Under the pieces are notes generated by a model that ran no database searches, had not been told where the DNA came from, and was given only the letters and a program-made list of their open reading frames with translations. A stretch of DNA of 64,000 nucleotides, taken from the NCBI GenBank assembly GCA_963803015.1, contig CAWDKV010000011.1:675021-739020 (forward strand). Reading direction: 5' to 3'. The stretch's first letter is position 1. Each line of letters starts with the position of its first letter. A program made the translations under genes and the position numbers. Of this stretch, positions 1 through 35,540 are shown piece after piece. This DNA is from an uncultured Gammaproteobacteria bacterium (GTDB taxonomy: Bacteria; Pseudomonadota; Gammaproteobacteria; Berkiellales; Berkiellaceae).

Positions 1-2310
1 TTGAATGGCTAATTGTATTGGTGTTAGTGATTCATCGCCTTTTGCTACTAAATTAACATTTGCGCCACGTTCGATTAATTTTTGAACGAGTGGTAAATCT
101 CCCCATTGGCAAGCATACATCAATAAGGACCACAAAGGAAAAGTGTCATCAATTGGATTGCTGGTGTCGCTCAGCCATTTTTCTAAAATAATCTTGTTAA
201 TTTCTTGAGCTTCTGATGTACATGGGATTTTGTGGAATAAACTCTGACTTGTTTCAAGCTTAGCGCCGCGCTCTAATAATTCTTTCACCCTCTCCGGCAG
301 TTCAGCTTTTACCGCCAACACTAAAAGAGTTGGTTCATGGTTTTTATGAAAATTAACATCAACCTCTCCGGGTTTAGAGAGGATCTGTCCTAAATAATGA
401 TCAACCATCAATCTATATATTTCTTTATCTGCCGAATTTTCATTAGCTGCTATTAAAGGTGTTATTAATCCCTCCTCCTCCTTTGATTTATTAACATCCG
501 CACCTTGTTGCAGCAAATAGGGAATCAATGCTTTATTTTTAAACCTGATACATTCATATAATATGTCATGTTGATTGATGTAATCAGATATATTTTGTAC
601 ACCAGCCACTTTCAAATAAGTTGCAAATTGTTCTGGCGTGGCTTTTCTTGAAATAATTTTTAAAATAGTCTTTTCATCATATTGACTTTTTTCCTCGGCT
701 GGGAGGGCTGAAAATTGTGCAAGCTCCTCATCAAAATTGATTCCAAATACAGTATAAAATGGTAAAGCACTATTGGCGACTTCCTTTTGTTGATCTTTTG
801 AATCTCGAACGCCATTATAGTCAACTGGGAGGGCAGGAGAGCTACTGACTGCATAACCAACAGATGCTGGCGTTTGCGCCTTTCCTACCAAGACACGTTT
901 AACAGAATGCTCTGTTATTAATTGATAAGCTAAAGCATTATACATTTTAATTATTTTATTTTCGTTTTCTGGGATCTTTCTAATATTGGGTTGTGATTCT
1001 ATTGAATCTAATACTATAGAACCATCTTGCCCCCTCCAGGCCCAAGTTTGAGCCAGTATATTTTTGGGTTCGATAACTGCGGTGTTCCCATCTTTAGGTG
1101 GCTTACCTTTACATAATACATAAAACCCGCCATTTTCACTCACCATCCCATGATGGGTGGGTGCTGCACCAGCTTTGCCTAATGATTGACAACAAGCCGT
1201 GATATGACCAAGCATTGCTCCTTTAGGATCTTTTTTATGTAACTTTATTAAATAGCAATCTTTTAGGCCATATTTAGAGCCATCAATCATCACTGGGGGA
1301 ACTGCTTTGTCACTATTTTTGGCGATGCTTTGCAAACGCAAATATTCTTCAAACACGGCTTCTGGCACACCGTATTTATGAAACAAATACGCTGCCAACT
1401 CGTCTTGTTTGCTGTTCTTGTATCGCACTTGACGAACACAATCTAAAAGTAATTTATCATCTGCATCCGCTAAAAGCGGTGGAAATTTAGCGAGTTCATT
1501 AATTAAAGTATTTTTATTCTTATTAATTTCCTTTTGCTTTTTACTAAGTTGACCAAGCTCAGCAACGAGCTTTTCCATCTCTGGTGAAATAGCTTCATTG
1601 TTTTTACGATCTTCTTTCACACTTTTATTCAGTTCTTGTATTTGTTCTTCTAATTTCCCAGCTTCAACTGCAAGTTTTTGAATCCTATTCCTTAAGTCAA
1701 GTACCTCGATGGGCGTATCTAACATTATTTGTTCTTCATCTTCCAACATTTTTTGTATTTTGGCTGCATAGGTGATAACCCCACTCTCTCTAAAATCACT
1801 ATCTTGCAATTTTTTTCCAAAGAGAGCTCGCCAAGATTTGAGATCCCAATTGTCTCCTTCAGGCAAATCAAACAAGCATGCCTGAAAAACAACCTGTCCA
1901 TTCAATACGGTATTATTTTTTTCAAATTTCTCAATATAGTTTATTGCTGTATTTGAATTGCCGAATATGATGGCCAGCTTATAAGCGTTAATTTCTGCGT
2001 TGGTATTCCCTTCCATCAAACAAGATAATTTTGTAAAAAGTAGTAGATCGGCATAAATTTTTTCATCAAAGCCATAGAGGTCAATTTTAGTGCCATAAAA
2101 AGGAGCAATGGCTTGCAGTTGTTTAAAAAGCACACCTGTTTTATCGCTGTTTTGTACAAGCTCAACAAGTTCTTGAGCAAATTGTTTGCTTATTGGCAAA
2201 TCGGGGTAAAGATTCTGGATATATTGATAGGCTAAGTCAGCTACTTGTGGGTTGTCTTTATGCGCGTGAATATAGTCCTTGATTTTATTGAAAGCATCAA
2301 CGGTAATCAT
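1..2310 (-). CDS. Ankyrin-repeat / coiled-coil effector-like protein. The 3' end runs off the window start; at least 770 aa are visible.
   Basis: It is absent from the ORF track because no stop lies in the window. Manual translation of the minus strand from the ATG at 2310..2308 (GAGGAG at 2314..2319) stays open to position 1. The N-terminus reads MITVDAFNKIKDYIHAHKDNPQ. There is a central coiled coil (LDLRNRIQKLAVEAGKLEEQIQELNK). C-terminal ANK-like repeats include ITPLIAANENSADKEIYRLMV, PTLLVLAVKAELPERVKELLERGAKL and WSLLMYACQWGDLPLVQKLIERGANVN. Confidence 0.75.
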   Translation of the reverse strand, partial: MITVDAFNKIKDYIHAHKDNPQVADLAYQYIQNLYPDLPISKQFAQELVELVQNSDKTGVLFKQLQAIAPFYGTKIDLYGFDEKIYADLLLFTKLSCLMEGNTNAEINAYKLAIIFGNSNTAINYIEKFEKNNTVLNGQVVFQACLFDLPEGDNWDLKSWRALFGKKLQDSDFRESGVITYAAKIQKMLEDEEQIMLDTPIEVLDLRNRIQKLAVEAGKLEEQIQELNKSVKEDRKNNEAISPEMEKLVAELGQLSKKQKEINKNKNTLINELAKFPPLLADADDKLLLDCVRQVRYKNSKQDELAAYLFHKYGVPEAVFEEYLRLQSIAKNSDKAVPPVMIDGSKYGLKDCYLIKLHKKDPKGAMLGHITACCQSLGKAGAAPTHHGMVSENGGFYVLCKGKPPKDGNTAVIEPKNILAQTWAWRGQDGSIVLDSIESQPNIRKIPENENKIIKMYNALAYQLITEHSVKRVLVGKAQTPASVGYAVSSSPALPVDYNGVRDSKDQQKEVANSALPFYTVFGINFDEELAQFSALPAEEKSQYDEKTILKIISRKATPEQFATYLKVAGVQNISDYINQHDILYECIRFKNKALIPYLLQQGADVNKSKEEEGLITPLIAANENSADKEIYRLMVDHYLGQILSKPGEVDVNFHKNHEPTLLVLAVKAELPERVKELLERGAKLETSQSLFHKIPCTSEAQEINKIILEKWLSDTSNPIDDTFPLWSLLMYACQWGDLPLVQKLIERGANVNLVAKGDESLTPIQLAIQ

Positions 2311-2434: not shown

Positions 2435-5004
<2,570 letters not shown>

Positions 5005-9754: not shown

Positions 9755-11623
9755 ATGAGTATCCAAGGCATTATGGAGAGTAGTGATTTTATAGATTCCT
9801 TGGCTAAGTGTGACAATGATGAATTAACTGATAGATTAAAAATAGCATTTTCAGCACTGCCAATGAATGAGAGAGTTACACTAGCAACTGAAATCCTGCG
9901 CAAACGCTATGAAAATATGAGTAGGCAAAACGGAGCTGCATCCGGGATCCCTTTAGTATATAGAAATTCAAATATGTTAATGCAACCAGTTATACGAGAT
10001 ATTATGACTGATCTGGGTTTTCCAGATCGTGATATGGCTCAATTTTATTCACTGGTAAAAAAAGCGGCTGAAGGAGATGAAGATGCAAAAACAAAAATAA
10101 CAAGCATTTTTAACAACCCTCCTCCTCAACTTGTTCAAATATTACAGCCCTTTTATCGCCAATACATTGAAGATATAACACGAAAAGAAGGTGGCGCGTT
10201 AACCGAAAAGCAATCAAAGGAAGCCAAAGCTGAATTTTTAAACCAATTTGTGTTTCCTACATTACAAACTCCAACTATGTTACTTCCAGCTGAACCTAAA
10301 GAGAACGCTACTCTCAATAGACAGATATTGAACATAAGTAAATCAGAGGCCATGAATGGACTGCTCAATGCAATCGAAGGAGCCCCCATCGATCCAAGAA
10401 TAACGCCCGCTGCGGCATCTCAAATAAAGAGTAAAATGTCAAATGCATTATCAACACCTGAAAATGCAGATCGAAACACATGTCAATACTTACGTCATCA
10501 ATTACTTGAACACCGCAGCATAATAGATTTTTTGAAGACAACAAGAATAATCCAAAATTTAGGAAACAAGTCAGGAATTGAAGGCTTTAAAATTGTTTTT
10601 GAATATTACAACCAAAATGATAAATCACTAAAATTTGTAAGACCGGATGACCTTAGGATACTCTTAAAAAACATGATGGACAGATCTGCTGCAGATCCCG
10701 CATTTAAAGATTTTATAAAAACTGATCCAACTGCTCTTTCATTTATGAATAAAGCAAATGAAATTCTGAAACCATTAAAAGCAAAAGAAGATAAAACCTG
10801 TTTAGAATTCTTAGAAAAGAGTATCAAAAAATCTGAAGCAAGCCCTGAACATATTGTAAAAAAATTAAAAGAGCTTGGAGGAAAGCTTGATAAAGGAATT
10901 TTTAAAGATAAAGTAGCTAGCGCTGTTACGCAGATAGAAAGCATACCTAACTTTCCTCGTGTCACTTCTGAGACAATAGAGAAAATGAGCACTGAACTCA
11001 CTCGTTTAAAATTAGAAAGTGTTTCCGAGGCAATGGCTAGCAAAAAAGCTGATACTGTTAGAGAAATAGGGCAAATTTGTGATCTATATAAGAGGCGAGC
11101 AACACCTTCTGCTGCAACACCTTCTGCTGCGACACCACTAGTACCTCCTCCAACGACGCTCCCGCCACCACACTTACCTCCTTCAACACCACTCCCTGAT
11201 GCAACATCATTGCTCGCTGCTGCTGCTGCTGCACCACAACCACAGCCAATTGTGATGGGGTATCATTCATTTACAAAAGCGGCAGCCCCGCTCCCTCATC
11301 AAGCAGCTCCTATAAGTGAAATGACAGCTAAAGAAAATCTGATTGAAAAACTAAGCGATCTAGCTAAAATACTAAAAAAAGGAGGGGCGGGTACAGTTTC
11401 AGAACTCATTGATCATTCTATTGAAACCATTAATCGATCAAAAAACGATGATGAGGTAGAAAAGGAAATAAGCCATTTAATATCGGAAGTGTCGAATAGC
11501 ACGTCAACTACCGCCGCAGCTAGCTCCTCAGACATAGACAGTAATAGGGTAATTGCGGATATACAACAAATTCATCAAGAATTTCAAAATGTGGCAAAGC
11601 CTCCTACACCGAAGGCACATTAA
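9755..11623 (+). CDS. Orphan effector-like protein with a Pro-rich segment
   Basis: 622 aa with a good SD (AAGGGAG) upstream of the ATG. I recognise no domain. A low-complexity block reads ATPSAATPSAATPLVPPPTTLPPPHLPPSTPLP. The 3' end overlaps the convergent LRR gene by 20 nt. Confidence 0.6.
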   Translation: MSIQGIMESSDFIDSLAKCDNDELTDRLKIAFSALPMNERVTLATEILRKRYENMSRQNGAASGIPLVYRNSNMLMQPVIRDIMTDLGFPDRDMAQFYSLVKKAAEGDEDAKTKITSIFNNPPPQLVQILQPFYRQYIEDITRKEGGALTEKQSKEAKAEFLNQFVFPTLQTPTMLLPAEPKENATLNRQILNISKSEAMNGLLNAIEGAPIDPRITPAAASQIKSKMSNALSTPENADRNTCQYLRHQLLEHRSIIDFLKTTRIIQNLGNKSGIEGFKIVFEYYNQNDKSLKFVRPDDLRILLKNMMDRSAADPAFKDFIKTDPTALSFMNKANEILKPLKAKEDKTCLEFLEKSIKKSEASPEHIVKKLKELGGKLDKGIFKDKVASAVTQIESIPNFPRVTSETIEKMSTELTRLKLESVSEAMASKKADTVREIGQICDLYKRRATPSAATPSAATPLVPPPTTLPPPHLPPSTPLPDATSLLAAAAAAPQPQPIVMGYHSFTKAAAPLPHQAAPISEMTAKENLIEKLSDLAKILKKGGAGTVSELIDHSIETINRSKNDDEVEKEISHLISEVSNSTSTTAAASSSDIDSNRVIADIQQIHQEFQNVAKPPTPKAH

Positions 11624-13292
11624 AAGTCCGCAGGAGGATATCACGTCTAGGATTTTCTGCTTTTACCTCGACAGCTGTGCTACTCTGGTCTTGCTGCGGA
11701 TTTAAACTTAAATTCTGCAGCCCTTCTAACATTGCATAATATTGCGTAAATGAACTGGTTGGAAATTGTTCTAGGTAATTTTCCTGAAGCGTTTCAGGAT
11801 TGAATCGTTGAGGGTTTCGTGCAATAAATCTTGCAACAATATATTGTAATGACGGCACTTGAGCGCTCACCTCTTTAGTAATAGCCAGATCTTTTAATTT
11901 CCCCCCATATCCAGACAATACCAAGCTATCATAACGTTGCCTTATCGCATCTAGCGGTTGAGGTAATGTTCTGATCCGATAATTTTCATTAGAAAGCCGT
12001 GCAATAGCATCAACAAATTCTTGAAATGGTTTAAGTTTTGTAGCGAAACCCTTCAAGTAAATACATAATCTGGGATTGATGAAAAGCGCTTCTCTTAATA
12101 GTACAAAATCTTGTGCTGTAAGGTTTACAGTTGCTGGAAAGGTTAAATGCAAATCAAAATTATGAGGTATTTTCGCTAGCGTATCACAAAATAATTTCGT
12201 TTGATTATCTCCAGGCTCCCCCCCAAAAGGGGTAGTGAGATGGAGTGCTGTTAGCTTTGTTTTAGGATTTAAAAGTGCAGCACACAATAAATCGAATCTT
12301 TCCGCTTTTTCATCAGTATTGTTTCTAGAAAAATCGAGAGATTCTAACCCCAAGGGACCCAAAAGATTAAGGATCCTCGCCGCAGTTTCAGTATTTAGTT
12401 CAGACAGTTTTAATCCTAAATGCTTCAGTCTTTTTTCAGCTAAGCTCCAGGCTTGAAGTCTATCATTAAAAACCGTTAAACGTGGATTGGTATCGCTTTC
12501 ATCTACTAAATGCGTTCCTTCTAACGAAAAGGAAGTAATGTTAGGGTTGTTCTTCACTACATTCAGAAGGGCTTCTACTTGGGTTGCATCTAACTTGTTG
12601 ACTGCTAAGGCAAGACTCGTCCAATTTACTCTAGCAAAAAGTGGAATTAGTTTAGAAAAATGTGGTTGCAGTCGAAAACTATTTATATCTAAAATAAATG
12701 ATGCAATTCTTAATCTTGGTAATATTGCGCAAAGTTTTTCTGCTAGTTGTTCTGTCAAAGCGTCACTGACAAATACTTCAAGACTGTATTCTTGATCAGG
12801 ATCTTGTGGCATTATAAGTAGTTCATCCAACAATTGGAGCGACAGGGGATCATCAGGCTTAAGATGAACTTCTTTTTTTGTTTCTTCTATATGAATATAT
12901 GTGCTATTTAACGCAAAAGAAGTAATTTTTTTATTATTTCTCACCGCCATTCGCAGAGCATCTAATTGTTTTCGATCTAAAGTGTCGACTTGTAATATAA
13001 GTCTTGACCAACTTGCATTGACAAAAAGTTGAATCAGGTTAGAAAAATAAGGTTGGGACTGAGTAGACTTTATTTCAAGTTTAAAGCACGAGATCCTGAG
13101 TGTTGGTAGTTTCGCGCAGAGTCTCTGTGCTATCTCTGGTGTCATATCACCATTAATAACTATTCTAAGATTTAGATCTTGGTTAGGATCTTGCGGCTCT
13201 TCAAGCTGTGCGATAAAAGCTTTTAGTGAAGCGGGGTTTTGAGGTTCAAGCGCACTTGAGATTATTTTTGTTTCTTTAGCGCCATTGAGCAT
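11604..13292 (-). CDS. RNI-like leucine-rich-repeat protein with an internal duplication of about 129 aa
   Basis: 562 aa with a GAGGA SD. Residues 15-137 and 144-265 are clear paralogous copies (PQDPNQDLNLRIVINGDMTPEIAQRLCAKLPTLRISCF versus PQDPDQEYSLEVFVSDALTEQLAEKLCAILPRLRIASF). Later LRR-like segments include LKHLGLKLSELNTETAARILNLLGPLGLESLDFSRN. Confidence 0.65.
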   Translation of the reverse strand: MLNGAKETKIISSALEPQNPASLKAFIAQLEEPQDPNQDLNLRIVINGDMTPEIAQRLCAKLPTLRISCFKLEIKSTQSQPYFSNLIQLFVNASWSRLILQVDTLDRKQLDALRMAVRNNKKITSFALNSTYIHIEETKKEVHLKPDDPLSLQLLDELLIMPQDPDQEYSLEVFVSDALTEQLAEKLCAILPRLRIASFILDINSFRLQPHFSKLIPLFARVNWTSLALAVNKLDATQVEALLNVVKNNPNITSFSLEGTHLVDESDTNPRLTVFNDRLQAWSLAEKRLKHLGLKLSELNTETAARILNLLGPLGLESLDFSRNNTDEKAERFDLLCAALLNPKTKLTALHLTTPFGGEPGDNQTKLFCDTLAKIPHNFDLHLTFPATVNLTAQDFVLLREALFINPRLCIYLKGFATKLKPFQEFVDAIARLSNENYRIRTLPQPLDAIRQRYDSLVLSGYGGKLKDLAITKEVSAQVPSLQYIVARFIARNPQRFNPETLQENYLEQFPTSSFTQYYAMLEGLQNLSLNPQQDQSSTAVEVKAENPRRDILLRTFNVPSV

Positions 13293-20886: not shown

Positions 20887-22347
20887 ATGCCACTTGAGCA
20901 ACACGCTTATATCAACTTAAATACACAATTGTTGTGTAAAACAACAGGTTGGCAAAATAACTGTGGGTTAAATTGCTTAACGCATTTTCTTTATCAGCAA
21001 TTAAGCCAAGGTGAGTTACAAAAAAACTTTGCGACTAATCCTGAATATCAAGCTTTACTCGTCACTTTCCAGGAATATTATCAGCTACCTCAAACGCCTA
21101 CCTGGGAAGATATTAAGCAATTGCTCGATAACTATCCTGTGCCCACTGACAAAGAAGCAATTTTTGCTCCTGTACTGCGACAGCACTTAGGAAAAAAACT
21201 GGCTAGTCTGCCTGATGTAACTTGGGACACAGATGCTGCCGCCACTATTTCTGAATATTTAAAAACCGGTAAAGTCAAAGACGTCGCTCTTCCTCTTTTT
21301 CATGCAAATGAAGCTTGGCTTGAAGAACTTAAAACCAAATACGATAGAAGCCAACGTAGAATAACTAGCCAAATTATAACAGAAAGTGAAAGAGCGCATG
21401 TCATTGAGCAAGACAGACTAGGAAATAAAGGCATACCAAGCGAAGAGCGTATTCGTGAACAAGTGATATTTAATCGAACCAATGCGTTGCAAGACAGTAT
21501 TCTTGCCCAAGCCAAATCTTATTGGCTAGCCGAAGGCTCTCTCCGTTATGCTGACACCATGGGCAAATTAGACAACGCTGAGATGGTCTCAGCAGAACAA
21601 TTATCACTGCTTGCCTATAGCCTTTCCATTGGCTTAGAAGTTTATACACCTGCCTCCATTGAAGATGCTAAAAAAAGACCTGAAGTAGGTAAAATCACAC
21701 ATGGTGCACAAAACTTGCCAGATAGAGCGTACCCTCTGACCTTTCGAGTACACAATCATGGCGTCCACTGGGAGTTTGAATCACCGAACAAGGATTTGGC
21801 TCAAGTGGCAAGGCATAATCAGTATTATCCAGAAACATTTGTTGCAAGTGAATTAGTTAATAGCGAAGCGCTCTCTGGTCAATTTAAAATTTTTGGTGAT
21901 CTCGCGCCTCTTGAGGTTAATCAGATGATTAAAGCGGCCGTGCATAGCGCCCTGGAAAATCGAAGTGCTATGGAATTGGAACAGCCTCCCGCAACGTTAT
22001 TTACTAGCTCGCCAAAAAGAAAGCAGGAAAGCATGTCCCCTTCTCCTAAATCCATGAGCAACTCAGAATTTAAACAACTAGAATTTAACGCTAACCAAGC
22101 CATGAACACTTTAGTCAATGTTTTAGATCATCAACGCAGAAGTGGCAAAATCAACGATAATAATCAAAAAGCGCTTTTCGAATTTTATTTTAATGCATTT
22201 GAAACGGAATTAAAGAAGGGACCATCCGACGCGTCTTCTGAAAAAATTCAAGCCTTAGTTGAAGAAATTAAGCACCATGCGCTTCCTGAAATGAAAAAGC
22301 ATGCCCATATACCAGAATCCCCCCAACCAAAGCGACCTAAAAAATAA
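20887..22347 (+). CDS. Orphan effector-like protein with an N-terminal papain-like Cys signature
   Basis: 486 aa. It contains GWQNNCGLNCLTHF (Cys codons 20962..20964 and 20974..20976) and a later VHNHGVHWEF (21751..21771). The C-terminus is basic. I recognise no other domain. Confidence 0.55.
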   Translation: MPLEQHAYINLNTQLLCKTTGWQNNCGLNCLTHFLYQQLSQGELQKNFATNPEYQALLVTFQEYYQLPQTPTWEDIKQLLDNYPVPTDKEAIFAPVLRQHLGKKLASLPDVTWDTDAAATISEYLKTGKVKDVALPLFHANEAWLEELKTKYDRSQRRITSQIITESERAHVIEQDRLGNKGIPSEERIREQVIFNRTNALQDSILAQAKSYWLAEGSLRYADTMGKLDNAEMVSAEQLSLLAYSLSIGLEVYTPASIEDAKKRPEVGKITHGAQNLPDRAYPLTFRVHNHGVHWEFESPNKDLAQVARHNQYYPETFVASELVNSEALSGQFKIFGDLAPLEVNQMIKAAVHSALENRSAMELEQPPATLFTSSPKRKQESMSPSPKSMSNSEFKQLEFNANQAMNTLVNVLDHQRRSGKINDNNQKALFEFYFNAFETELKKGPSDASSEKIQALVEEIKHHALPEMKKHAHIPESPQPKRPKK

Positions 22348-31200: not shown

Positions 31201-32197
31201 GCGAACAGCAGCAACGCCAACACCAACTGATACGAGCACAAGCACTTTTGAGGCATTGGAGAAAGGATTAAAAGCAGCTCGTCCAGCAGCGCCAGTAAGA
31301 AAGTTGTCACCTACTCCCGCACCAGTTCTGACAGCAAAACCAGCGGTTATTCCAGCAGCAAAACCAGCACCAATAGCACCACCAATTGGAAAGCCAGCCG
31401 TAGTTGCTGCTGTTCCTGCACCAGCTGCTTCTGTTGCTGCACCAATAGCCAAACCAGTGGCGCCACCTCCTGCAGCGCCTAAATCATTCCTTGGTCGCAT
31501 GGCAGATCGCGTGGCGGGAGCTTTGGGGTTTTCAGCTCCTGAACCCCCTCCAGCAAAGGTAAAACAAGCAGGTACACCACAGCCTCTGCGGGTTTCAGTG
31601 ACAGCAGTACTGCCAGCAGATGCAGATCCTGTTCCTGTTATTACCCCGGGGCAGCAGCCTACAGCCATTACCCATATGCTTAATACAAAAGCAGGTCCGG
31701 CTCAAGCTATGTCAGGTCTGCACATTGATATCAAAACGCTACAACAAAAAATTGAGCCTATCAAAGCAACTTATGGTATTGCAAACGCCACTTATGGCGA
31801 TACACCACCTCATACCACAAGAGGACTTGCCAACAAACCAACGCTTACTTTAGACATACCAGATACAACTAAACCTAACGTTAAGAATTTTGTCTATCTG
31901 CAAAATGACGCCACTGGCGGCGTTGAATTTCGTGCTTCTCAAAGTGCACTAGAATCTGAATCTACACTCAAAAATATATGCAAGTTAGCAGTTGAACAAG
32001 CCGGGCCTGGTACTAATTTTCAAAACGTAAATGCAAGAATTAAGGAACATCTAGAAAATGCTATCAGAGATTTGCCAACAGATAGGGCCGCTCAATTAAA
32101 TTTAACGGTAGAAGGACAAAAGATTGCGCCTCGCGCACTAGCAGCATCTCCAGCGCCAGCAACTACACCACCAACACCTACATCTAAACAAGGTTAA
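28226..32197 (+). CDS. Large Pro/Ala-rich multidomain protein: polyPro tracts, WASP-like CA segment, DH (RhoGEF)-like domain, coiled coil and a C-terminal domain shared with the next gene
   Basis: The track ORF begins at GTG 28193. I prefer ATG 28226 because of the SD AAGAGGA at 28211..28217 (8-nt spacing). This gives about 1323 aa. See the domain features and findings for motifs. Confidence 0.85.
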   Translation: MPKDEENKAPEVDQWGDPIIPASKTGTPDSKDSEKLTPEQMRNALKGGFQQALGNKGVAEIKKTDAAKEIMQDQKGLSVQERIKLAEEEKKRKAEEAKAAEAAAANAETAAQVTTSSFSASSAPPPPPPPGKAPPPPPPPGKGKGAFPKAPAAASAPVVEATAKPASPIASASDAAAGGPEQLTDKAKLAASIAAGLQKKNIRAAVADDENENDQDEKNDQDEIWEDDAPAIAKGKAAAAPPSPPVAAASAEPTAAPAAQPAAALAEPDTPPAASSFYTLSEDELPPADTYQPIAEPTNILSRQQIEKLDEFISTEESSRNGSFTNEIITQFTEVIDEEIKRGKFNSSQREKLENLRTLVKHAENLNESSKKVESALKEYATSPGNVKNQTELSQALEAHYQNLETYTTVYNKCLYPIGGLQTDSNFSALFDKLNSISTSLPAPINFTTGQAGKPLNFETRAMAPIQRGPRYSLLLNELITLSPENLVQKQFLTDLVTANQQSNIRMNSSTLINPAAEVEKKAKAEKKAKVKVEKTAKTATSTSFFGNIVETVGTTLGILPAKSGIAKTEATATSLPVTESTARAASAPPALVTPPVPPPPAEAMPSIDLTENEPLTDESEPEPAVGSDTESDIEDEGSDIEEEAEQATPSATDEVKAPRPPLRSSYTAPLPPLSAQSPGAKSSAAASSGAPPAAATTAGTAAAKSDPPPPPPRSKLLATATTAATTAATTAATTAATTAATTAAATPAATTPAATTPAATTPAATTPAATTSAAATPIAKTPPGDKSSTPVDTSREEAENILKEHIENWPQVKGSGGEELGEQFVALVALALKALSLGGTVADIKFGKLFNDKSDELKNLNKEKIKLQGDIRTLENQLGQATPGSPEAQRLTTELTTKRGELSQVEARIASSANGTFEAGRQDLHAQVTSAGQDAAEMESAIFTAAPPPPPPRAPAATDPTIAGTKVAAAPPPPAAAIPAATQLKAPPPPPRTAATPTPTDTSTSTFEALEKGLKAARPAAPVRKLSPTPAPVLTAKPAVIPAAKPAPIAPPIGKPAVVAAVPAPAASVAAPIAKPVAPPPAAPKSFLGRMADRVAGALGFSAPEPPPAKVKQAGTPQPLRVSVTAVLPADADPVPVITPGQQPTAITHMLNTKAGPAQAMSGLHIDIKTLQQKIEPIKATYGIANATYGDTPPHTTRGLANKPTLTLDIPDTTKPNVKNFVYLQNDATGGVEFRASQSALESESTLKNICKLAVEQAGPGTNFQNVNARIKEHLENAIRDLPTDRAAQLNLTVEGQKIAPRALAASPAPATTPPTPTSKQG
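28595..28909 (+). other. Proline-rich plus connector-acidic (CA)-like module inside 28226..32197
   Basis: PPPPPPPGKAPPPPPPPGKGKG lies at 28595..28645. The helix KAKLAASIAAGLQKKNIRAAVA lies at 28781..28846. The acidic tail DDENENDQDEKNDQDEIWEDD lies at 28847..28909. Confidence 0.55.
29129..29730 (+). other. Dbl-homology (RhoGEF)-like domain inside 28226..32197
   Basis: The CR1-like motif is SRQQIEKLDEFISTEES. The CR2-region motif is YQNLETYTTVYNKCL. The CR3-like motif is GKPLNFETRAMAPIQRGPRYSLLLNELITLSPEN, with its PIQRGPRY..SPEN core at 29618..29683. The span of about 200 aa fits a DH domain. Confidence 0.65.
30389..30547 (+). repeat. In-frame coding tandem repeats: 12-bp ACAACAGCTGCA x6, then a 15-bp GCAACAACACCTGCT-type unit x5
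   Basis: The 12-mer units run 30389..30460 and encode (TTAA)6. A 12-bp transition unit follows. The 15-mer units run 30473..30547 and encode (ATTPA)5. Confidence 0.9.
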
Positions 32198-32211
32198 TTA
32201 AGGAGAAAATC

Positions 32212-34122
32212 ATGAGTTCAGGGGGGCCAAATGATTGGGATGACGATGACCATGAAGAAGAGGAAGATACACAAGCCGATAAGCATGTTGGTCAAAGAAG
32301 AGAAATGATCAATAAATTATTTGCAGGTAAATTGCAACCAGCATCGCCCGAGAATCCTCCTGGCCCTGTAGCAGTTGCCCCTACTGAAACTGATAGCTCT
32401 GAAAGCGCAACAAAGGAGAGTGTTCCTGCATCTAAACCACCACCACCCGCTCCTCCTTCGCCAATGAAGGGAAAGCTATCTCCAGCCTCGCCAGTGAATA
32501 AAGGAAAAGATGATTTATTAGCCGCGATTAGAGCAGGGAAAGACTTAAAAAAGGCTCCAACGTCTATAGCCAAACCTGCTGCTAAACCTGCACCTGCGCA
32601 ACCCGGTTTATTCGACGCCCTTTTGGTAAAGTTGGGAACACCTGCTGGATCATCTGATGGCGCTCCAATTAACGGACCAACAATTCAAAGAAAAATTGTA
32701 GGCTATACCACTCATTTATCTAAAGAAGCATTTCAAGAAAATCTTGAATCCGAGTTTGGTGTTGATGCTTTTAGCAAGGGAGATTTTATTCCCGTCTATG
32801 CGGGCCAAGAAGATCAATTTAAAGGTCCCGCTCAAAAGTTAGAAATTGATGTAGACCTAACGAAAGATACGTCAGGAATAATGCAATTTTGGCCACTTGA
32901 AATGCAACAAGGATTTAGTCGTGAATCAGGCTTAGCACCCGCACCAAATGTGCCTGCTGCAGCAGCCCGACTCCCTATAGAACCTTCTCTTGAAACAGTA
33001 GTACCGACACAACCGCTAAGAGCAGGTGAAGAAGTAGAAAGACAATCTTTAGAAGAATCTTCTCAAACCGACGAATTTCCATCCGAAACCGAATCTTTAC
33101 CAGACGATGATGAATCTCTGCCAGATGCAGAAGCCTTAGCTGGCGTAGAACCCTTACCAGACGCAGAAGTCTTACCAGACGCAGAAACCTTAGCAGATGA
33201 ATCTCTTTCTCCTCCCGAACCTCAAATCCCTGATATTTTGGCAGCAGGTGCTGCGCAAATGCCAGCTTTGAGTGGAGATCAAGTAACCTTACGCTCTCAA
33301 CCCCGTGTTGAACTTGAACTCAGCCTCGATGATACCGATGTCCCTCCTCCCCCTCCGCCCAGAAGAAAAAAAGACATAGACGTTGAAGCTACAAAACTAG
33401 CATCCCTACAAACAAAAGTAGTACCACCACCTCCTCCTCCCAGACGGGATGAAGGAGAAGAGGTCATGGACCTGTTTAGCGCATTAGCACCACAGCCAGC
33501 TGCCGCATCATCACCTGATTTATCTACAAAACGAAGCATACCCGTACGTGAATCAGACAGTCCTGAAGATGAAACCGTGGTTGAAGACTTTTTAACTGCA
33601 ACACCACCGACGGTTAGATTTGAGCCCCCTTCTAGAACAACACTATCCAATTTTCAATTGTTAACACAATCGATTAAAAACAAGGTTAATATTGATCCAA
33701 ATTACTATGGCGTAACAAGCCATCAGATTTTAGCGGCTAGACAATCAAGTGAAATGGGGCTAAATGCGACAGAAACTTTTAACTTGAAGATGAAAATGCA
33801 ACCTCCTGCTCAACCACCAAATTATGATATTCATATCCAAGATAATGGCCAAGCCGGTGTTGATTTCTATACTACTCATAAAAGTGAAGAAACTTTAACC
33901 AATATTTGTAAAATGGCAGTAGAGAACGCCGTGCTCGGCACAGATTTTAGCAGCATTCAAGATAGAGATGTTGAGCAACATTTACGCAAAGCGATTGAAA
34001 AGCTGCATAGAGATGACCCTGACAAAGCAGTCAGATTGAATTTATCTATCAATGGAGAAATCGTCCCGCCAAAACCAAGACCCAGCCGACGCCCTTCTCT
34101 TGGCGCTGAGAGAGAGCGGTAA
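32212..34122 (+). CDS. Pro-rich WH2-motif protein, a paralog of the upstream gene through its C-terminal domain
   Basis: 636 aa. A strong SD AAGGAG lies at 32199..32204, and the gap after the upstream stop is 14 nt, suggesting an operon. It has an N-terminal acidic-Trp stretch, a PRD, a WH2 motif, acidic LPDAE repeats, two PPPPPPRR motifs and a shared C-terminal domain. Confidence 0.85.
   Translation: MSSGGPNDWDDDDHEEEEDTQADKHVGQRREMINKLFAGKLQPASPENPPGPVAVAPTETDSSESATKESVPASKPPPPAPPSPMKGKLSPASPVNKGKDDLLAAIRAGKDLKKAPTSIAKPAAKPAPAQPGLFDALLVKLGTPAGSSDGAPINGPTIQRKIVGYTTHLSKEAFQENLESEFGVDAFSKGDFIPVYAGQEDQFKGPAQKLEIDVDLTKDTSGIMQFWPLEMQQGFSRESGLAPAPNVPAAAARLPIEPSLETVVPTQPLRAGEEVERQSLEESSQTDEFPSETESLPDDDESLPDAEALAGVEPLPDAEVLPDAETLADESLSPPEPQIPDILAAGAAQMPALSGDQVTLRSQPRVELELSLDDTDVPPPPPPRRKKDIDVEATKLASLQTKVVPPPPPPRRDEGEEVMDLFSALAPQPAAASSPDLSTKRSIPVRESDSPEDETVVEDFLTATPPTVRFEPPSRTTLSNFQLLTQSIKNKVNIDPNYYGVTSHQILAARQSSEMGLNATETFNLKMKMQPPAQPPNYDIHIQDNGQAGVDFYTTHKSEETLTNICKMAVENAVLGTDFSSIQDRDVEQHLRKAIEKLHRDDPDKAVRLNLSINGEIVPPKPRPSRRPSLGAERER
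32437..32637 (+). other. PRD - WH2 - linker - C-helix-like segment inside 32212..34122
   Basis: The proline-rich stretch is KPPPPAPPSP. The WH2 core LLAAIRAGKDLKKA lies at 32515..32556. A 16-aa Pro/Ala linker follows, then GLFDALLVKLG at 32605..32637. Confidence 0.6.
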
Positions 34123-34124
34123 AT

Positions 34125-35540
34125 TTAAATAATCCAATAATTGATAAAATCTGGGATTGCCATGCTTCCCAGATTTTTTTTATGCATAAGGGAATAAAGC
34201 GTATCTGCTTTATCTTCTGGATAAAATGCAGCAATGTTATGTTTAAACTTCTTCCATAATAGGGGAATGCCCTCTTTACGACGTAAGCGGTGTCCCAGTG
34301 GATATTCCGTAGTGTAAGTGAAGCTTTGACCATTCTTAAAATAAATCTCAAGCGTATTGGCGATGCTTCGCTTGGTTGGATCTAAATAATCCCTACTGAA
34401 TTGCTTATTCTCAACAACTTGCATTTTTCCACGCAATGGTTCAATCAATACGTTTTTAGCGTATTCATCTTCATAATGCTGTGCTGTCAGTGTTCCTTCT
34501 AGTAAGGCAACCGCGACCATATACTGTAAACAATGATCCCTATCTGCAGGATTGTTTAATGGCCCTTGTTTATCAATAATTCTGATGGCAGCCTGATGCG
34601 TTTTTATAATTATCTTATCAATATCCACCATATTATTTTTGACTTCTTGGTGAAGCGCTAAAGCACATTCCACAGCCGTTTGCGCATGAAATTCTGCCGG
34701 AAATGCAATTTTAAATAAAATATTTTCTATCACATAGGAGCCAAGTGGTTGCGATAAGGTTATGGGTTTACCTTGAAATAACACATCACTAAATCCCCAT
34801 TTTTTAGCGGAAATGGGCGTTTCATATCCCTCTTCTCCTTGCAGCGTTAAAAAGGCTAATCTGACCCCCCTGCTCACTGCGTCTCCAGCTGCCCATGATT
34901 TTCTGCTCCCGACATTAGGCGCATGGCGATAGGTTCTTAGTGCTTGTCCATCAACAAAGACTTGCGATAAGGCATGTATCACTTTTTCTTTGGTGCCCCC
35001 TAAAAGTTTTGTCACAATGCCTGTTATCGCAAGTTTAACTAAAATAACATGATCTAAACCCACCGCATTAAAACTGTGATCTAAGGCAATAACACCTTGA
35101 ATCTCATAAGCTTGTATCATAGCTGTATAGAGATCTTGCACAGTATAGACTTTGTTCGCAAAGTCTTGACTTCTTCTTGAAACAAAATCCATCACACTTA
35201 AAATGCCACCGATATTATCTGAAGGATGCCCCCATTCTGCTGCTAGCCATGTATCATTAAAGTCCAGCCAACGAATAAGAGTTGTCATATCAAAAGCAGC
35301 TTTTATAGGATCAAGCTCAAATGCCGTCCCGATGACACGTGCTCCGTTTTTAATGGTGGTATCTGTTACCCAGGGGCCACATAGTTTCGTACACGCAGGA
35401 AATGTCAGGGCTAATGCGGCGCACCCTAAACTATCTGCTAAACAAATGTGGGCTGTTTCAAAAGCAAGTGCGCTTTTTATTTGAGTGTCAAAAAGATAAT
35501 CTGCGATTTGAACAAGGAGGGGATCAACGTTGTTTTTCAC
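34125..35540 (-). CDS. prpD: 2-methylcitrate dehydratase
   Basis: 471 aa. IRWLDFNDTWLAAEWGHPSDNIGGIL and the overall colinearity match the PrpD/MmgE family. Its stop lies 2 nt from the stop of the convergent gene 32212..34122. Confidence 0.93.
   Translation of the reverse strand: MKNNVDPLLVQIADYLFDTQIKSALAFETAHICLADSLGCAALALTFPACTKLCGPWVTDTTIKNGARVIGTAFELDPIKAAFDMTTLIRWLDFNDTWLAAEWGHPSDNIGGILSVMDFVSRRSQDFANKVYTVQDLYTAMIQAYEIQGVIALDHSFNAVGLDHVILVKLAITGIVTKLLGGTKEKVIHALSQVFVDGQALRTYRHAPNVGSRKSWAAGDAVSRGVRLAFLTLQGEEGYETPISAKKWGFSDVLFQGKPITLSQPLGSYVIENILFKIAFPAEFHAQTAVECALALHQEVKNNMVDIDKIIIKTHQAAIRIIDKQGPLNNPADRDHCLQYMVAVALLEGTLTAQHYEDEYAKNVLIEPLRGKMQVVENKQFSRDYLDPTKRSIANTLEIYFKNGQSFTYTTEYPLGHRLRRKEGIPLLWKKFKHNIAAFYPEDKADTLYSLMHKKNLGSMAIPDFINYWII

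Follow-up and report, generated by a model that had tools for sequence, protein, structure and literature searches.

Elements of actin regulation divided between two adjacent genes: a probable WH2-bearing effector in a relative of Candidatus Berkiella

Bacterial mimicry of WASP and of the actin-monomer-binding WH2 motif is well known, with ActA, RickA, BimA, TARP, VopL/F, Wbm0076, MavH and RavH as examples. The 64-kb stretch of contig CAWDKV010000011.1 analysed here (assembly GCA_963803015.1, an uncultured gammaproteobacterium; the whole stretch is called the window) raises the question of whether a further case is encoded by its open reading frame (ORF) at 32212..34122 (+), here ORF B, for which an earlier note made from the DNA letters had claimed a near-canonical WH2 motif. 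If so, how might such a protein act on host actin? Our analyses suggest that B is probably a secreted actin-binding effector. It satisfies the definition of a WH2 motif by sequence, and we consider it reasonably probable that this WH2 binds G-actin as part of such an effector.

ORF B encodes a protein of 636 aa with 12% proline that is predicted to be disordered for the most part and that bears the WH2. Its ATG at 32212 lies 14 nt past the stop codon of the upstream gene, ORF A (32195..32197), and 6 nt after a Shine-Dalgarno sequence, AAGGAG (32200..32205, +). The motif strings of the earlier note, positions included, are all read in this single frame (translation of 32230..32637). The WH2 motif, GKDDLLAAIRAGKDLKKAPTS, occupies aa 98-118 (32503..32565, +), with KDDLLAAIRAGKDLKKAP at 32506..32559 and the core at 32515..32556. 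The scan with the Pfam profile PF02205, which the earlier note had proposed as a check, was passed with a score of 23.2 bits, the gathering cut-off being 23.1 (model positions 4-24 of 28); the E-value of 5.3e-5 was obtained over 24,736 models and corresponds, for a single protein and a single model, to a P-value of about 2e-9. The B sequence DDLLAAIRAGKDLKKA fills every canonical WH2 position (LL..IR.G..LKK), and it aligns residue by residue with the N-WASP repeats (3m3n) and with domain D of Spire (3mn7), both of which are structures of complexes with actin. A strict WH2 expression, [LIVM][LIVM]..I..G..L[KR]K, was run over the 128,000 residues of the six frames of the window with shuffled sequences as control, and its one match fell in B, where 0.01 matches were expected from the shuffles. 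In addition, a small hidden Markov model (mini-HMM) was built from PDB-verified WH2 sequences and run with all filters off on B, on A and on a homologue of A; B 98-116 was the sole match (E=5e-6). Because the mini-HMM finds nothing beyond B 98-116, B has one WH2. Further WH2-like helices that had been considered in B (aa 30-45 and 132-148) and a candidate WH2 in A (LAASIAAGLQKK) gave no match with the unfiltered mini-HMM and were dropped. A helix is predicted at B 94-107 in a low-confidence model, and the proline-rich stretch KPPPPAPPSP (32434..32463, +) precedes the motif. A near-canonical WH2 (V) with a proline-rich stretch upstream is therefore upheld by the agreement of the Pfam profile, the alignment to PDB sequences, the unique expression match and the mini-HMM.

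In WASP-family proteins the V element is followed by a C helix (C) and an acidic-Trp element (A), together called VCA. For comparison, the V-linker-C-A sequences of WASP and N-WASP were verified from PDB chains 6uhc_H, 1ej5_A and 2vcp_D. After the WH2 of B comes a Pro/Ala linker of 16 aa, PTSIAKPAAKPAPAQP (32557..32604, +), close in length to the 15-aa V-to-C linker of N-WASP, and then the hydrophobic stretch GLFDALLVKLG (32605..32637, +). The earlier note had taken this stretch for a C-like helix, a claim that we could not sustain. Its likeness to the C helix of WASP is at chance level and concerns the first half of that helix only (GLVGALMHVMQ): 0.3% of random 11-mers score at least as high, about 0.07 such matches are expected just downstream of the WH2, and local alignment of GLFDALLVKLG alone gives z ~1 (p=0.15). 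Moreover, the stretch lacks a basic half of the QKRSRAI type, continues into Gly-Thr-Pro and is not modelled as a helix by single-sequence AlphaFold, whose model is weak. No C helix with a basic segment such as VMQKRSRAI directly follows V in B.

An acidic-Trp patch, NDWDDDDHEEEED, is present at aa 7-19 of B (32230..32268, +) and is a candidate Arp2/3-contacting element. As the earlier note had remarked, it lies at the opposite, N-terminal end, upstream of V, and not at the C-terminal end after C; since the start of B is well defined by the ATG and by AAGGAG at 6-nt spacing, the patch lies at the true N-terminus of the protein. All ORFs of 60 aa or more in the six frames were scanned for Trp residues with at least six D/E within 6 residues on either side. 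Two of the 421 Trp in the window qualify, W9 of B and W225 of A. When the proteins are shuffled with their composition preserved, such patches appear in 1.4% of the shuffled B sequences and in 0.3% of the shuffled A sequences. The better acidic-Trp element of the two is the one on A, again as had been noted. With neither a C helix nor a C-terminal A element, B is thus, as far as its motif content goes, not a VCA protein.

The missing elements appear to lie on the neighbouring protein. ORF A (28226..32197, +; 1323 aa) is the probable operon partner of B. Its mechanical ORF runs from a GTG at 28193, and the ATG at 28226 is the likelier start, with an AAGAGGA box upstream of it. From the 14-nt gap and the strong Shine-Dalgarno sequence of B, the two genes are probably co-transcribed. 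At 28790..28909 (+), corresponding to aa 189-228, A carries the segment LAASIAAGLQKKNIRAAVADDENENDQDEKNDQDEIWEDD, made up of a C-like part (LAASIAAGLQKKNIRAAV) and an acidic part (ADDENENDQDEKNDQDEIWEDD) in the canonical C-then-A order and with the basic segment LQKKNIRAAV present. This module was recognised by alignment to the C-A region of N-WASP and by the rarity of its acidic-Trp patch. The alignment has z=5.2 and its score was reached in 0 of 1000 shuffles; LQKKNIRAAV-ADDENENDQDEKNDQDEIWED of A is placed against VMQKRSKAIHSSDEDED...DDDEWED of N-WASP. A phmmer search of the segment against PDB gave no match, and the likeness is visible only by direct alignment with shuffle controls. The earlier note had assigned V and C to B and the A element to the upstream protein. 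The location of V on B and of the acidic-Trp element on A stands, and the C element has to be reassigned, because the stretch on B is at chance level and a C-A-like segment is found on A. As predicted from these alignments, B carries V and A carries the C-A-like module.

ORF A has further features that point towards host actin regulation. A DH/RhoGEF domain is predicted at 29273..29728 (+), where PF00621 scores 27.9 bits against a gathering threshold of 27.6. The margin is borderline, and the domain also has the signature of conserved region 3 (CR3), tested as PxQRxPRYxLLLxxL: in the best PDB match, the Rho/Rac GEF 8zlf (E=0.007), PIQRGPRYSLLLNELI of A is aligned to PVQRLPRYKLLLTDLI. No PH domain was detected in A; a coiled-coil segment is present. 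A sequence scan also located two P7 runs in A, PPPPPPPGKAPPPPPPPGK (28595..28645, +). Runs of PPPPPR recur in both proteins. In B the motif VPPPPPPRRKK (33340..33372, +) fits both profilin-type and class II SH3-type patterns, and a second copy, VPPPPPPRRDE (33421..33453, +), was found by motif scan. A WH2, a C-A-like module, a DH/RhoGEF domain, PPPPPR runs and two acidic-Trp patches are therefore clustered in two adjacent genes.

The two proteins are also related to one another through a C-terminal domain (CTD) of about 150 aa, which lies at 33613..34119 (+) in B and at 31679..32194 (+) in A, the two paralogous copies being 30% identical (E=7e-15). When the A/B CTD profile was searched exhaustively with HMMER against 1.84 billion representative proteins, only four further proteins were returned. 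P0003 is B-like and has 240 aa; P0002 has 661 aa and no Pfam domain, with its CTD behind an unannotated region of 540 aa; P0004 is a fragment (L085 17..409); and P0005 is a protein of 477 aa with an N-terminal Macro domain (L084 6001..7434), whose gene sits among hemA-prfA-prmC in a bacterial metagenome-assembled genome (MAG). The alignment retrieved nothing in the word-index search, in GTDB genomes or in JGI metagenomes. Judged from this distribution, the CTD is a rare bacterial module found behind unrelated N-termini, as would be expected of a modular effector domain. An AlphaFold2 model computed from six sequences predicts an alpha/beta fold with a pLDDT (predicted local distance difference test) of 79.5 and a pTM (predicted template modelling score) of 0.72. 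A Foldseek comparison of this model with PDB yielded no significant neighbour (best E=0.19, template modelling score below 0.35), and the CTD profile found only noise among PDB sequences. Behind the CTD, all family members have a short tail that is disordered and has a high content of Pro/Ser/Thr/Gly; that of B is basic as well and ends in ...RRPSLGAERER.

The only homologue of B that was found is P0003. It is part of a diverged pair, here A' and B', found in L082/L083. All that B' has in common with B is its CTD and one short motif, PDIL..G..MP...VTL.S; it lacks residues 1-300 of B, with no WH2 and neither of the VPPPPPPRR motifs. A' of L082 keeps a C-A-like segment, LEEIKAKAMQERRAAIKDDEDDEQEDVWDPD (z=2.7 against N-WASP), and no DH domain was found in it. 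Since B' is without a WH2 and A' keeps C-A without DH, the actin-related modules appear to have come and gone one at a time. PrpD of the window and that of L082 are 73% identical; the identity is 59% for the CTDs of A and A' and 30% for those of B and B', which marks A and B as apparently fast-evolving accessory genes. Within A', we also observed that a stretch of about 75 aa is duplicated, AIEKAQKAWNDIMAKLSEKDKVSALP / IIKDAQQAWNEIINKLPEGDRARILP (L082 ~3560..4000, residues ~1190..1340), a duplication not present in A of the window; the central region of A' is otherwise unrelated to the DH region of A.

In the scheme that we propose, the single canonical WH2 (aa 98-118) would bind one host actin monomer in its barbed-end groove, and the poly-proline runs of B may serve to attract SH3 proteins or profilin-actin. 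The CTD, common to A and B, would bring both proteins to the same host-cell site, where A could engage Arp2/3 through its C-A-like module and switch on Rho-family GTPases through its DH/RhoGEF domain. B would concentrate polymerisable monomers, and A and B together might drive local actin assembly. As a whole, this combination of the WH2, the poly-proline runs and a CTD that places B beside the Arp2/3 and Rho functions of A is tentative, and we put its chances a little short of even. The motifs with their statistics, the arrangement of the genes, the shared CTD, the taxonomic neighbourhood and the variable genomic slot are observations; secretion, binding of actin, what the CTD does and the cooperation of A with B are inferred.

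The scheme would follow, by analogy, the logic of MavH (Lpg2425) and RavH (Lpg0733) of L. pneumophila, Dot/Icm effectors that join helices binding actin monomers to a separate localisation domain and bring about actin assembly at a host membrane (PMC10381072, PMC13481308). The helices of MavH and RavH are "WH2-like" with no sequence likeness to canonical WH2, whereas that of B passes the Pfam WH2 profile. B is also unlike them in being paired with a RhoGEF/C-A protein and in having a CTD that is not known to bind phosphatidylinositol 3-phosphate (PI(3)P). Library scans gave B no NCBIfam or Pfam effector family match that would relate it to MavH, to RavH or to any other named Dot/Icm effector family. 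The motif LxHxTxxRPK(6x)P, called CPI for its interaction with capping protein, is absent from B even in loose form, and the idea of such a MavH-type motif in B was dropped.

An analogy can likewise be drawn with the bacterial WASP mimics Wbm0076, RickA and ActA. B resembles WASP, N-WASP, the WAVE VCA, RickA and Wolbachia Wbm0076 in having a proline-rich stretch and then a WH2, an acidic-Trp element and a linker of 15-16 aa (PMC9980815). Unlike single-chain VCA proteins, RickA and Wbm0076, it has its acidic-Trp element at the N-terminus and lacks a true C helix. The C-A-like module is on A, and, taken singly, neither A nor B shows the ordered V, C and A of the WASP-family VCA. Listeria ActA shares with B the sequence of acidic stretch, actin-monomer-binding region and C region, followed by proline-rich repeats (PMC2175181). 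The actin-binding region of ActA is, however, not a WH2, its basic C core is essential, and it is anchored at the surface by a C-terminal transmembrane segment of which B has none. The DH domain of A is not new to Legionellales, because a published listing already has DH/RhoGEF proteins from three Legionella species (PMC4256840). Like A, these have a eukaryote-like DH/RhoGEF domain, with their function unassigned, and no fusion to C-A, to poly-proline runs or to the CTD is reported in that listing (PMC4256840).

Several observations weigh against B as a secreted actin-binding effector. The PF02205 cut-off is exceeded by 0.1 bit only, and the model of the N-terminal region of B is of low confidence (mean pLDDT 44.7). 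The WH2-bearing N-terminal region is wholly absent from B', and no homologue of the N-terminal half of B was found in word-index or metagenome searches; because the only homologue lacks the region and no other was found, there is no evidence of purifying selection on the WH2. The CTD has no detectable likeness to any solved structure, for which reason its role in localisation is a guess. Dot/Icm signals are C-terminal and disordered, abound in small or polar residues and often include a Glu block; there is no clear Glu-rich block in the disordered C-terminal tail of B, and the 64-kb window contains no dot/icm or other secretion-system gene. The borderline Pfam score and the absence of the region from B' would also fit a WH2 match that is fortuitous or decaying within a fast-evolving disordered region, in which case B would have no actin function. 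The very fast evolution of A and B (CTD 30% against PrpD 73%) and their tandem repeats, if these reflect slippage-driven turnover, point the same way. Against this, the Pfam P-value is low, all of the canonical positions are matched, and four other actin-pathway elements co-occur in A and B. We regard a fortuitous or decaying match as improbable.

If the WH2 is genuine, the partner through which B would act has to be considered. B alone might be a nucleation-promoting factor for Arp2/3, since its order of acidic-Trp patch, WH2 and C-like stretch is the same as that of the acidic stretch, actin-binding region and cofilin-homology sequence in ActA (PMC2175181), its acidic-Trp patch is rare, and the distance from V to the supposed C, 16 against 15 aa, is near that of N-WASP. 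The C-like stretch, however, is at chance level and not predicted to be helical; B has no counterpart of the basic core, essential both in ActA (residues 146-150) and in WASP; and the acidic patch is about 90 residues upstream of the WH2, the true C-A-like module being on A instead. Such an activity of B by itself seems to us quite improbable. With V on B only and C-A on A only, A and B could together form a two-component nucleation-promoting factor in which B brings V and A brings C-A fused to RhoGEF, so that a VCA is rebuilt in trans through the paralogous CTDs, either by their heterodimerisation or by their attachment to one common host target. The two genes lie side by side and are probably co-transcribed, and the CTD is nearly unique to A and B, all of which would suit such an arrangement. 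Yet in L082/L083 the homologue of A keeps C-A beside a homologue of B without V, implying that the pairing is independent of V. Further, there is no evidence of CTD-CTD interaction, and proteins with C-A only can act without V in cis or in trans. We therefore give a VCA rebuilt in trans little credence, about as little as an independent activity of B. The last alternative is that B works without Arp2/3, either as a WH2 polymerase of the MavH kind that is clustered on membranes or as a monomer sequesterer of the thymosin type. A single WH2 with a separate folded CTD would be in keeping with this, and MavH sets a precedent, one WH2-like helix being sufficient when clustered on PI(3)P membranes (PMC10381072). 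No likeness of the CTD to lipid-binding domains was detected and B has no CPI motif; moreover, the C-A-like module and RhoGEF domain of the partner argue for an involvement of Arp2/3 at the level of the pair. This alternative we consider unlikely, if a little less so than the others.

The organism and the genomic setting of the pair speak for the proposed reading. The gene next upstream of A encodes PpsR, which has 64-75% identity with proteins from Candidatus Berkiella and from related MAGs of Gammaproteobacteria, and by this measure the source bacterium is a relative of Candidatus Berkiella (Legionellales), with kinship to Legionella and Coxiella. The Berkiella bacteria live as obligate intracellular associates of amoebae; they possess a Dot/Icm type IVB system, and many effectors are predicted for them (PMC9803151). 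The window is chromosomal backbone, with serS, ftsK, clpB, icd, mnmA, purB, pps/ppsR, prpBCD and addAB-type genes among which orphan genes are interspersed. Its ppsR-prpD interval is variable. In the window the interval (28056..34125) is filled by A and B; the corresponding slot is empty in L002 (10816..10808), holds an unrelated orphan of 787 aa in the Ca. Berkiella MAG L004 (11020..13383) and contains the diverged A' and B' pair in L082/L083 (L082 2..5659). The GC content at third codon positions of A and B is 0.24-0.28, like that of their neighbours; being native-like, it rules out a recent import from a GC-rich donor. Contamination with eukaryotic DNA is ruled out by the bacterial ppsR and prpD flanks, the presence of a Shine-Dalgarno sequence and the conserved bacterial synteny.

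Other features of the two ORFs and of the window were recorded. In B, the helix predicted at aa 21-37, QADKHVGQRREMINKLF (32272..32322, +), is the top-scoring part of the weak single-sequence AlphaFold model (pLDDT ~70), which contains helices at 21-37 and 94-107. Residues 1-65 and 143-467 of B had no meaningful match in PDB, residues 89-260 had none in metagenomes, and the word-index search with full-length B returned a self match only. An 18-nt tandem repeat of 4.3 copies (33121..33197, +) encodes acidic LPDAE-type repeats in frame, and in A in-frame DNA repeats with 12-, 15- and 30-nt units (30386..30558) encode (TTAA)/(PAATT) runs. These in-frame tandem repeats suggest slippage-driven length variation in both genes. 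Elsewhere in the window, an ankyrin-repeat protein of 698 aa (22503..24599, +) resembles the Dot/Icm effector AnkH/LegA3 in part, with a score far under the family cut-off; it is probably another effector, and as a neighbour of A and B it counts in favour of the effector reading. Large ORFs of 622, 562 and 486 aa (9755..11623, +; 11604..13292, -; 20887..22347, +) lie between housekeeping genes and match no Pfam or NCBIfam model; they are candidate lineage-specific effectors. The PEP synthase gene pps (24774..27172, -) is split into the frames 25787..27172, 25438..25887 and 24774..25460 and represents either a probable pseudogene or an assembly frameshift, and the gene of its regulator, ppsR, is intact.

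Our search of the literature found no report of a canonical, profile-detectable WH2 in Legionellales, and neither the presence of V and C-A on two adjacent proteins with a shared domain nor a fusion of C-A to DH/RhoGEF was found described. If the proposed scheme is true, the A/B locus would represent a new way to assemble the host actin machinery from linear motifs, and were the VCA in fact rebuilt in trans, the bacterium would control monomer delivery and Arp2/3 engagement separately. The CTD of A and B would then define a new modular effector domain, one that is seen behind a Macro domain too. Overall, the pair would extend the biology of actin-targeting effectors to the little-studied Berkiella lineage of amoeba parasites.

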